Shown: piece after piece, positions 22,649 through 52,752 of the stretch | How positions within the stretch are numbered: the first letter of the stretch is position 1 | How the letters are laid out: each line of letters begins with the position of its first letter | From: Nanobdellota archaeon | GTDB lineage: Archaea; Nanobdellota; Nanobdellia; Pacearchaeales; GW2011-AR1 | DNA: 64,000 nt | Reading direction: 5' to 3' | Assembly: GCA_030648155.1 (NCBI GenBank) | Contig: JAUSIK010000008.1 | Coordinates: forward strand, 274,491-338,490 | The notes under the pieces: model-generated | What the model saw: only the letters and a program-made list of their open reading frames with translations | What the model was told of the DNA's origin: nothing | The model's database searches: none | Program-made: the position numbers and the translations under genes

Positions 22649-23137
22649 ATGCAATCAATATTATTTGAAAACACAGCAGAAATTAGAAGAAATAAAGATC
22701 TTTTAGAAGAAAAACTAAATGTAAAAATATCCTTTCAAGGAAAGAGAGTTACTATTGAAGGTCCTTCTCTAGAAGAGTATGAAGCATCAATAGTTTTAGA
22801 TGCAATAAAAGCAGGATTTTCAGCAATTAAAGCTCTTTCATTAAAAGAAGATACAAAGATATTCAGAGTCATAAATATAAAGAGTATGACTAAAAAGAAA
22901 AACCTTGAGCTAGTAAGAGCCAGGCTAATTGGCACCCAAGGAAGAACTAAAAGAACAATAGAAGACATTACTGGGTGCGATATTGTAATAAAAGACAATG
23001 ATATAGGAATAATTGCAGATGCTGAATTAATTGAAGAAGTAGTAACTGCAATAAGTAATCTGGCAAGAGGAACAAAACAAGCTAATACTTATCGATACTT
23101 AGAAAAAATGAATACTGAAAAGAAAAAGTATGAATAA
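22649..23137 (+). CDS. KH-domain ribosome biogenesis protein (Dim2/Pno1-Krr1 family)
   Basis: AIKAGFS, RARLIGTQGRTKRTIEDITGCDIVI, LARGTKQANTYRYLE. Confidence 0.88.
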   Translation: MQSILFENTAEIRRNKDLLEEKLNVKISFQGKRVTIEGPSLEEYEASIVLDAIKAGFSAIKALSLKEDTKIFRVINIKSMTKKKNLELVRARLIGTQGRTKRTIEDITGCDIVIKDNDIGIIADAELIEEVVTAISNLARGTKQANTYRYLEKMNTEKKKYE

Positions 23138-23232: not shown

Positions 23233-23250
23233 AGTATTAAAATCAACAAT

Positions 23251-23262
23251 AACGTTTATAAA
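23251..23262 (+). promoter_or_regulatory. BRE/TATA promoter of tRNA-Asn
   Basis: AACG-TTTATAAA about 24-35 nt upstream of tRNA G1. Confidence 0.6.
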
Positions 23263-23285
23263 AGCCCATTATCTCCCATTCCTAG

Positions 23286-23580
23286 GATCTCGTAGCTCAG
23301 TCGGTAGAGCACATGGCTGTAGTACGTTGTTCGAATTAAATAATCGAGCTAAATAAAGTAGCAGCTTTCCAAGGAAACTTGGGAATGATAAGCGAGTAAA
23401 TTCAGGGAAACCCTACATTAAGTTGAGGGCAATCCTGAGCCAAGCCCGAAAGGGAAGGTGCAGAGACTAGACACTCGCCGCCTAAAGCTGAAAAGCTATG
23501 GTGATGGTATAGTCCTACCCTCCAAGTAATTGGAGAAGGTCGTAACCATGGGGTCGCTGGTTCGAGTCCAGCCGAGATCG
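23286..23580 (+). tRNA. tRNA-Asn(GUU), exons 23286-23320 and 23543-23580, interrupted by a group I intron; CCA not encoded
   Basis: Acceptor GATCTCG/CGAGATC, G73; D arm GCTC/GAGC; anticodon stem CATGG/CCATG with spliced loop CTGT|TAA; T arm GCTGG-TTCGAGT-CCAGC; 73 nt spliced. Confidence 0.93.
23321..23542 (+). ncRNA. Group I self-splicing intron (IC3-like, 222 nt) at tRNA position 35/36
   Basis: P AAATTCAGGGAAACC, Q GGCAATCCTGAGCCAAGC, R GAAGGTGCAGAGACTAG, S GGTATAGTCC; P3 GCGAGT/ACTCGC; P1 exon GGCTGT with IGS GCAGCT (U.G at splice site); GNRA-capped P2/P6a/P8/P9; terminal G. Confidence 0.92.
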
Positions 23581-23582
23581 TA

Positions 23583-24659
23583 TTATTTATAAGATACTAA
23601 AGAAGGAATTTTATCACCTTCTCTTCTCTCCATACTAATTTTCTCTAACTTGACAACATCTAACTTTCCGTCTAATAAAGCCAATCTCTCAGGAGTTGTA
23701 GTAAAAGGGATAAACTTCTTAAATTTTTCAAAGATTTTAAATTTAGTTATATGTTTTTCATTATGAAGTCCCCATTGATGATAAATCTTGAAAGCCTCAT
23801 TTTTACCAATATAAAATCTTGCATAATTTTCATAAATTCTAAAAATGTGTTTTATTTGATTTGCATCTAATATCTCGTGCATTTGTTTTGCAACCAATAA
23901 ACTATGAAGCTTTCCGCTAATACTTAAAGAAGAAGTTATATGGAAATCTGTATCTATAATTCCTACAACGCATCTCTTTTGAAAGGCATTATTCTTCAAA
24001 ATACTTGAAGGAATGATTATATCTTTTTTTGATCCATAAGGTAAACCTAAAATCTTATTCTTGAATTCTGCTAAAGCTTTGGATTTATAACGAGAATCTA
24101 TATTATTCTTATCTTTTCTTTCTAAAAGTAAAGGTCCAATATTATATAACTTTCTCATTAATTTTCCAATATATTCTTTATGATAAAGATATTCATTAGT
24201 TAAATCTCCACTAACTGTATATCTATAATTTCCCCATCCCCTTTTATCAATATGTGAATATAAGCTGCCATCTCCAATATGAATGCCTATCTCCTCCGCA
24301 AGATCTTCAGTCATCTTATCAGGAATTTTTAAATTTCTTTTTATATCTGCCCAAGAAGGTTTTATTTTTTCATCATAAATTATAGGCCTAATAAAAAGAT
24401 CTCTCAAATTCTTTGTAGATCCAAAATATTCTCTAACTGCAATATCGCTCGAATATCCTGCTATCCATACAGTAAGGTAACTATGTATGTTATTAAATAA
24501 TTCATATTGAATCCTGGCTGCAGCGATTAGTTTTTCTTTTGGATTTTCTATCCGACGTATTTTTTCCAAAATATTTTCATCGATTTTAAAGTATTTTCTA
24601 GGAATGTCTAACTTTTCTTTAATAGGAAGTTCACGCCATTTTTTAGGAATTATATTCAT
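23583..24659 (-). CDS. Free-standing double-motif LAGLIDADG endonuclease/maturase-like protein
   Basis: LAEEIGIHIGDGS (motif 1), CVVGIIDTDFHI (motif 2, conserved G replaced by F); no intein termini. Confidence 0.82.
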   Translation of the reverse strand: MNIIPKKWRELPIKEKLDIPRKYFKIDENILEKIRRIENPKEKLIAAARIQYELFNNIHSYLTVWIAGYSSDIAVREYFGSTKNLRDLFIRPIIYDEKIKPSWADIKRNLKIPDKMTEDLAEEIGIHIGDGSLYSHIDKRGWGNYRYTVSGDLTNEYLYHKEYIGKLMRKLYNIGPLLLERKDKNNIDSRYKSKALAEFKNKILGLPYGSKKDIIIPSSILKNNAFQKRCVVGIIDTDFHITSSLSISGKLHSLLVAKQMHEILDANQIKHIFRIYENYARFYIGKNEAFKIYHQWGLHNEKHITKFKIFEKFKKFIPFTTTPERLALLDGKLDVVKLEKISMERREGDKIPSLVSYK

Positions 24660-24715
24660 TTACCATACAACCTATCAATCTATATATAAATTTCCATATC
24701 CATCCTTAGACGTTT

Positions 24716-24925
24716 TCAAATAGCCCAAGCCAAAATACCAGCAACAATCAAAATTACAATCAACAATATAATGAAAAATCTCTTTTTCCTTTCCCTTTCC
24801 TTGCGGCTGTAATATTCATCATATCCTTTTTCTATGTCTTCTTTTTGCTCCTTGTTCAATTTGCTTTTTTCACCCTTTGAATAATTAAAGCTTATTGCTC
24901 CACCAGTATTAACTCTCTCTACCAT
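24716..24925 (-). CDS. Small tail-anchored membrane protein
   Basis: 69 aa; charged N-terminus, basic patch then C-terminal TM helix. Confidence 0.6.
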   Translation of the reverse strand: MVERVNTGGAISFNYSKGEKSKLNKEQKEDIEKGYDEYYSRKERERKKRFFIILLIVILIVAGILAWAI

Positions 24926-52574: not shown

Positions 52575-52605
52575 AAATAATTGTATATTATATACTTAAT
52601 AAATA

Positions 52606-52700
52606 CAGGCCTAGGAGGAATCGAACCCCCGTCAATCGGTTTCTTCTTTATATAAATCAAGTTCCGAAGCCGACTATTCTATCCACTGAACTATAGGCCT
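52606..52700 (-). tRNA. tRNA-Arg(UCG) with a 23-nt BHB-type intron at 37/38 (52641-52663)
   Basis: Acceptor AGGCCTA/TAGGCCT, G73; loop CT-TCG-G|A; C32-C35 (CTTC) pairs with intron GAAG flanked by 3-nt bulges; T arm GGGGG-TTCGATT-CCTCC. Confidence 0.92.
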
Positions 52701-52752
52701 ATGAAAAGAGTTAAATAATTATCCTATTTAACCTTATTGAAAAGAGGATATT

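Follow-up and report, generated by a model that had tools for sequence, protein, structure and literature searches.

Much is known of free-standing homing endonucleases in phages, whereas those on the chromosomes of cellular archaea have received hardly any study. For phages, intronless homing has been laid out as a scheme (PMC3984707, Figure 5c), and pairs of an intron and an endonuclease that spread jointly are known (PMC3984707, Figure 5b; PMC2790892). As for group I introns, all 39 archaeal ones of Nawrocki et al. 2018 lie in ribosomal RNA (rRNA) genes (PMC6125680). The locus described here is a LAGLIDADG gene beside a transfer RNA (tRNA) gene for asparagine that holds a group I intron. 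It lies in a stretch of 64,000 nucleotides (the window) from the contig JAUSIK010000008.1 of a Nanobdellota archaeon of the order Pacearchaeales. The open reading frame (ORF) is probably a free-standing homing-endonuclease gene of a lineage specialised on tRNA-Asn, a selfish and optional cassette of 1.1 kb that spreads by intronless homing. This reading is supported by the fold, the kept catalytic residues, the constant adjacency to tRNA-Asn, decayed copies, independence from the intron and a presence/absence polymorphism whose empty sites are clean. From these we infer nuclease activity, a target position and homing itself. The gene and the interrupted tRNA are arranged as follows:

23583 to 24659, reverse strand: LAGLIDADG endonuclease gene, free-standing, 358 amino acids (aa) (ORF listing)
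23286 to 23320, forward strand: 5' exon of tRNA-Asn(GUU), ending in CUGU at U35 (sequence reading and ARAGORN with the intron option)
23321 to 23542, forward strand: group I intron of 222 nt, ORF-less, in the anticodon between U35 and U36, ending in G (Rfam RF00028)
23543 to 23580, forward strand: 3' exon of tRNA-Asn, starting with UAACC, discriminator G at 23580, CCA not encoded

The stop codon (TAA on the reverse complement) occupies 23583-23585, and the gap to the discriminator G is exactly 2 nt, as had been stated in a preliminary description of this DNA made from the letters alone. The start codon is correct, because the orthologues share the N-terminus M.KIPKKWREL. The whole tRNA-Asn(gtt), window 23286-23580, was called by ARAGORN with the intron option and was not called at default settings. 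It is the only tRNA-Asn that the program with this option finds in the whole 1.25-Mb assembly. RF00028 scores the intron at 81.3 bits over 23345-23536. Another Rfam match, HPnc0260 at 23549-23743, was rejected as an antisense reading of the tRNA T-arm.

The assignment to the LAGLIDADG enzymes rests on the fold, because curated sequence models do not recognise the protein. AlphaFold2, given a family alignment of 36 full-length homologues, predicted two alpha-beta-beta-alpha-beta-beta-alpha halves with packed LAGLIDADG helices (pLDDT 94.3, pTM 0.87). In Foldseek, the model matched I-DmoI (TM 0.78, E 2e-7, root-mean-square deviation (rmsd) 2.6-3.1 Å), and the other top matches were I-Tsp061I and the archaeal intein endonuclease domains PI-PfuI and TliVMA (TM range 0.71-0.79). 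An N-terminal helical domain (aa 1-110), an I-DmoI-like core (aa ~115-300) and C-terminal helices (aa 301-346) make up the domain layout. The fold and the coordinates thus agree with the free-standing two-motif LAGLIDADG gene, tail-to-tail with an intron-containing tRNA-Asn, that the preliminary description had proposed. Three parts of the protein are referred to below:

24261 to 24302, reverse strand: LAGLIDADG motif 1, LAEEIGIHIGDGSL, with the catalytic Asp130 at 24270-24272
23940 to 23969, reverse strand: LAGLIDADG motif 2, VVGIIDTDFH, with the presumed catalytic Asp238 and Phe in place of the usual Gly
24330 to 24659, reverse strand: N-terminal helical domain, aa 1-110, conserved in the clade (alignment and AlphaFold2)

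The orthologues fall into about 100 clusters with 46-63% identity. Among the 36 full-length homologues, the motifs GIHxGDG and GxxDTDF are invariant and lie about 105 residues apart, and so are the acidic residues that end the two LAGLIDADG helices, D130 and D238. Motif 1 is the end of helix 118-130 in the model, with G125, I126, H127, G129, D130 and G131 invariant. The family profile aligns it to LGLIIGDGGL of I-DmoI and places D130 on D21, in a PDB match which is itself insignificant (E 0.15); matches to Patched in the same search were dismissed as chance. Motif 2 forms the end of helix 224-238, and G233, D236, T237, D238 and F239 are invariant across the tRNA-Asn clade. Its unusual DTDF had been pointed out before and belongs to the whole clade, while the more distant relatives carry DTDG with the usual Gly after the second Asp. 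The extension of about 110 aa at the N-terminus was also recognised earlier, and the model folds it as a separate helical domain with Q51, WIAGYxSD and R76 invariant. Folded alone, this domain reaches a pLDDT of 88.5, and its best Foldseek match in the PDB is no better than E 4.6. A resemblance to TetR-like helix-turn-helix proteins (probability up to 0.33) was rejected as unsupported. Both the N- and the C-terminal regions are strongly conserved in the alignment. No usable match came from searching the single protein against NCBIfam, PHROGs and PDB sequences, Pfam and NCBIfam giving none at E <= 1 or 10, and the sequence link to a curated family consists of weak tail matches to proteins carrying PF14528. 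On the strength of the model, the protein is predicted to be a monomeric, I-DmoI-like LAGLIDADG enzyme with two motifs and both catalytic Asp intact.

The position of the gene was compared over about 68 orthologue loci, 17 of them from genomes (16 species representatives and the window) and 51 from metagenomes. A tRNA-Asn(GTT) converges on the 3' end of the gene in all 16 full-length loci of the species-representative genomes. In the metagenomes, tRNA-Asn lies against the 3' end in about 49 of the 51 loci, and the arrangement is convergent in about 46 of them, with gaps of -11 to +75 nt; over all loci, the gaps range from -52 to +75 nt. In many orthologues the C-terminal tails GLEPRT, GFEP and LDSNQRP are the antisense translation of the tRNA T-arm. 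The adjacency of gene and tRNA-Asn is far beyond chance. Moreover, the pairing is kept over at least five flank contexts, and gene and tRNA are found inverted together between the KH and MnmA genes. It is the tRNA, and not the neighbourhood, to which the gene is tied.

The tRNA-Asn genes beside the endonuclease gene are of several kinds, and over all loci the majority hold short archaeal introns. In the 16 genome loci, one is intron-free, six carry a short intron at position 37/38 and eight carry several non-canonical short introns; a group I intron occurs in L003 only, to which the locus of the window adds one. In the metagenomes, at least 12 of the 51 tRNA-Asn genes are intron-free (73-76 nt, anticodon loop uninterrupted), and three hold a group I intron. 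The tRNA-Asn genes of L001, L006, L008, L010-L012 and L014-L016 hold as many as three or four short introns at non-canonical places, namely the D-loop, the anticodon stem and the T-arm. One recurrent intron, at 70/71, lies 3 nt from the 3' end of tRNA-Asn and has the conserved tail CGGRAARCG. It occurs with the endonuclease gene in genome G323 and without it in G279 (L176, G279:C1:188414-188473). The idea that the 70/71 intron is a hallmark of gene-bearing alleles was dropped, as two of 401 genomes (G323 with the gene, G279 with an empty site) are too sparse a basis.

The distribution of the gene is patchy. It was found at full length in two of 61 relatives, namely the genome of the window (G000) and G018, which belongs to another genus of the same family. 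Only one of ten sampled genomes of the genus, that of the window, has it, and nine do not. In an even sample of the order, four of 401 genomes (about 1%) carry it. The gene order in the genus is aIF2-beta, p98, KH, tRNA-Asn, a 69-aa membrane protein, NTase and MnmA, and the empty-site comparison is framed by the following features:

22649 to 23137, forward strand: KH-domain protein gene, left-hand marker (Pfam KH_KRR1_2nd and KH_1; synteny)
23581 to 24715, no strand: segment of about 1.13 kb, present here and absent in genomes of the same genus (empty-site comparison)
24716 to 24925, reverse strand: membrane-protein gene, 69 aa, right-hand marker (tblastn against loci of the same genus)

The segment fills the space between tRNA-Asn, at its 3' end, and the membrane-protein gene of 69 aa, at its stop codon. 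In the empty site of G005 (L114), 17 nt separate the Rfam end of the tRNA from the end of the alignment to the 69-aa gene, with about 14 nt to the stop codon. G009 (L118) and G003 (L116) are also empty, with the same flanking genes (KH, tRNA-Asn, 69-aa gene). Two decayed copies exist as well: in L008 a stop replaces the invariant W103 and the frame is also shifted, while L016 is frameshifted. Such presence or absence at a fixed landmark, here tRNA-Asn, together with clean empty sites, is what is expected of a free-standing homing-endonuclease gene.

The same distribution bears on another reading, in which the protein is a domesticated host factor, similar to WhiA, that serves the cell by binding the tRNA-Asn gene or its transcript. 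Strong purifying selection over the whole length, the N- and C-terminal extensions included, a single copy per genome and a protein tree that partly tracks the genomic context are in favour of it. Such a factor should be present almost universally and by vertical descent, and should have lost catalysis. In contrast, about 1% of the genomes of the order and one of the ten sampled from the genus have the gene, its empty sites are clean, some copies are pseudogenised and the catalytic residues are kept. Domestication is accordingly unlikely.

The 3' ends of tRNA genes are classic integration sites, and the gene might be what remains of a larger integrated element, a virus or plasmid, with its attachment site at tRNA-Asn. 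Other variable genes are indeed found at tRNA-Asn in the relatives. In the same intergenic spot in the genus, G006 has a gene with an HNH motif and G002 an M23 peptidase gene, and G001 adds a possible PD-(D/E)xK nuclease near the tRNA. The insert itself, on the other hand, is a single gene in 1.13 kb with no integrase, and viral contigs yielded no relatives. Reading of the 56-nt spacer showed no duplicated tRNA end (a repeat finder was not run). An integrated-element remnant is a very improbable explanation. As for G001 (L117:1175-1939), its ORF of 254 aa lies between the KH gene and tRNA-Asn, upstream of the tRNA, and has an FPDF...IIIEC motif. It matches Phage_endo_I weakly (E 7.7e-4, below the cut-off) and could represent another, third type of nuclease at tRNA-Asn.

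The group I intron of this tRNA gene was considered a possible partner of the LAGLIDADG gene. The preliminary description had proposed collaborative homing, in which the neighbouring enzyme cuts intron-less tRNA-Asn alleles and both elements spread jointly. In such collaborative or trans homing, the cut would fall at the intron insertion site and the intron would protect the host allele. Both gene-bearing genomes among the close relatives (G000 and G018) also have the intron, in a sample taken mostly from the same genus and family, and four gene-linked intron copies cluster on the intron tree. Over all loci, nonetheless, the intron lies beside the gene at the background rate: in five of about 68 (two of 17 in genomes and three of 51, or 5.9%, in metagenomes), against 22 of 401 genomes (5.5%) in the order. 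The comparison across genomes that had been suggested as a check gave the same answer. Within the 401 genomes, only that of the window has both elements; the intron is present in one of the four with the gene and in 21 of the 397 without it, so that the gene is missing from 21 of the 22 genomes with the intron. The gene also stands beside many intron-less tRNAs, the at least 12 intron-free tRNA-Asn genes given above, an observation that the preliminary description had itself named as speaking against its proposal. On the intron tree, the intron of the window is sister to that of G006 (92% identity), a genome that lacks the LAGLIDADG gene, and the remaining introns linked to that gene belong to another clade. 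The protein of the window, for its part, is closest to L002 and L004, whose tRNAs carry only a 37/38 intron. The gene and the group I intron are statistically independent, and neither depends on the other. They share a host gene but are not partners, and joint homing of the two has little probability. The partner story was attractive but is unsupported.

The same counts apply to a second proposal, that the protein is a trans-acting splicing maturase for this intron. Some LAGLIDADG proteins are maturases, e.g., I-AniI and yeast bI3. The genome has a sole tRNA-Asn, so that splicing is essential, and the extra N-terminal domain has no assigned function. A maturase would be associated with its cognate group I intron, and most orthologues have no group I intron nearby: the conserved clade is found next to the intron-free tRNA-Asn genes and to dozens with short archaeal introns only. 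Both catalytic Asp are invariant, and the intron, whose score is that of a complete group I core, persists without the protein in at least 20 genomes. A maturase role can almost be discarded.

The intron has a family of its own. Homologues with 74-91% identity occur in 22 of the 401 genomes of the order, in 12 genera and three families, and tRNA-Asn is the host gene in every copy with a readable exon. About half of the copies encode an HNH-motif ORF. Close orthologues of this ORF (64-81% identity, with the ORF of G006 as query) are located within the intron, in its 5' part, in about 10 genomes. Introns with it measure about 500-570 nt, and those without any ORF about 200-330 nt. The comparison of these forms draws on the intron loci L124, L121, L122, L126, L133, L137, L140, L141 and L136, in genomes G039, G189, G404, G220, G243, G249, G099, G040 and G093, and on L110, L128 and L129. 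In three genomes (G006, G129 and G411), the HNH-motif ORF is free-standing just 3' of tRNA-Asn, and in G173 the in-intron ORF is pseudogenised. These forms, with ORF, without ORF, free-standing and pseudogene, look like a complete homing cycle of an archaeal tRNA group I intron. Judging from its relatives, the intron of the window is the ORF-less state of an HNH-bearing mobile intron. Since the intron family carries its own HNH-motif ORF, the LAGLIDADG enzyme is not needed to explain the spread of this intron. The earlier argument that an ORF-less intron requires an endonuclease in trans loses force accordingly.

Intronless homing of the LAGLIDADG gene would proceed in two steps. The enzyme would cut both strands in or right beside tRNA-Asn genes without the cassette, and repair from a cassette-bearing allele would then copy the gene in. 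The intron that interrupts this tRNA would be a second, independent selfish element, whose family would spread by its own HNH-motif endonuclease. A break made by the LAGLIDADG enzyme could drag a nearby intron along by co-conversion, which is possible in principle (PMC2790892), though the data do not require it. One part of the preliminary proposal stands: action on tRNA-Asn alleles is the best explanation of the position of the gene, while the link to the group I intron does not hold.

Several observations weigh against intronless homing at tRNA-Asn or limit it. In three metagenome loci a co-oriented tRNA-Asn lies just downstream of the gene, so that insertion at one fixed point, the 3' end of the tRNA, does not hold universally. 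Ordinary intron-free tRNA-Asn genes are among the gene-bearing alleles, and no protective substitution was seen by eye when mature tRNA-Asn was compared between gene-bearing and gene-less alleles. The predicted cut site is placed no finer than in or next to tRNA-Asn, because intron-free alleles show no evident protective substitution and the gene can lie on either side of the tRNA. The protein tree broadly tracks the flank context, which fits much vertical descent. Identities over the orthologues range from 45 to 64% for the LAGLIDADG protein and from 34 to 80% for the flanking KH protein. The approximately unbiased (AU) test for incongruence between gene tree and host tree gave a borderline p = 0.048 for a group picked after seeing a tree, and was dropped as evidence. 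Furthermore, motif 2 carries Phe at the usual Gly position, the Pfam search with the single protein found no model reaching E = 1, and the search of viral contigs for relatives left the cassette with no known vector.

The association with tRNA genes extends beyond this clade. More distant relatives, with 27-47% core identity, come from Aenigmatarchaeota, Iainarchaeia, Woesearchaeota, Bathyarchaeia and Hadarchaeota. About 45 of the 64 examined lie directly against a tRNA gene, and many tRNA identities are represented. The tRNA-Asn clade is monophyletic with 100% support in a tree of 78 proteins. Along this tree, the tRNA identity switches 21 times, fewer than in any of 500 shuffles (mean 34.2, minimum 29). 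The rule of one tRNA identity per endonuclease clade is family-wide. A literature search returned no account of free-standing LAGLIDADG genes beside tRNA genes in archaea. In three loci, LAGLIDADG ORFs of the same superfamily lie between tRNA halves in inserts of 660-720 nt (L025:2379-3171, L037:3948-4696 and L075:3954-4708). The split tRNAs were called Ser, Tyr and Thr by ARAGORN, with uncertain anticodon calls, and their layout suggests endonuclease-encoding tRNA introns in archaea.

A broader and more speculative reading can be drawn from these patterns. The tRNA genes of DPANN and other archaea might be contested landing sites for several nuclease families, with the LAGLIDADG lineages dedicated to one tRNA identity each. 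Cutting by these enzymes and by the HNH enzyme of the group I intron might be what drives tRNA genes to gain such unusually diverse and widespread introns, which would shield the target site: the short archaeal introns at 37/38, in the D-loop, in the T-arm and at 70/71 as well as the bacterial-type group I intron. The tRNA-Asn gene would then record two competing homing systems. This reading is offered tentatively and is more doubtful than the homing of the cassette itself. In one genus and its family, a natural series is available of empty, LAGLIDADG-filled and HNH-motif-filled sites and of the intron with and without ORF. It could be tested here whether endonuclease pressure explains the odd introns in archaeal tRNA genes, how an optional selfish gene persists in tiny DPANN genomes, and whether these enzymes form a tRNA-gene-specific meganuclease group with an accessory domain.

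Other features of the window and its genome deserve mention. A TATA-like box precedes the LAGLIDADG gene:

24683 to 24690, reverse strand: TATA-like box TTTATATA, 23-30 nt upstream of the ATG (putative, read from the sequence)

It suggests a promoter of the gene's own and a leaderless or near-leaderless mRNA. Another box, the conserved TTTATAAAA, lies in window 23240-23285, about 35-45 nt upstream of the 5' end of tRNA-Asn; it is common to the G005 and G006 loci and is likely the tRNA-Asn promoter. At window 52605-52701, ARAGORN called a tRNA-Pro(cgg) of 97 nt by default and a tRNA-SeC(tca) with the intron option; the likely explanation is a tRNA that contains an intron and whose identity is called ambiguously. 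G000 has one more group I intron, ORF-less, in its archaeal 23S rRNA (69.5 bits, G000:C1:303488-303707, L082). In contigs C21 and C19 of the same assembly (L083 and L084), the bacterial large-subunit rRNA model fits better than the archaeal one. With a checkM contamination of 4.4%, these contigs may be contamination.

Among characterised enzymes, the closest in structure are I-DmoI and I-Tsp061I, monomeric two-motif LAGLIDADG enzymes of archaeal rRNA introns, and the inteins PI-PfuI and TliVMA, which have the same fold at an rmsd of about 3 Å. With I-DmoI, the protein shares two LAGLIDADG helices that each end in an acidic residue, and motif 1 can be aligned at D21. Unlike these enzymes, it is encoded by a free-standing gene whose landmark is a tRNA and not an rRNA, and it adds the 110-aa N-terminal domain, about 45 aa of C-terminal helices and the DTDF form of motif 2. 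The case also differs from collaborative or trans homing as in MobE with I-TevIII, in that co-occurrence is at background here and an HNH-motif ORF belongs to the intron family itself. In its way of life, the gene resembles the Seg and Mob genes of T-even phages, where an optional endonuclease gene sits by conserved genes and is presumed to spread by co-conversion (PMC3984707, Figure 5c). SegB of the T4 tRNA cluster likewise acts at a tRNA gene region (PMC13096335). Seg and Mob, however, are GIY-YIG or HNH enzymes of phages that spread at co-infection, whereas the present gene encodes a LAGLIDADG enzyme on a DPANN chromosome and belongs to a strict relation of one clade to one tRNA.

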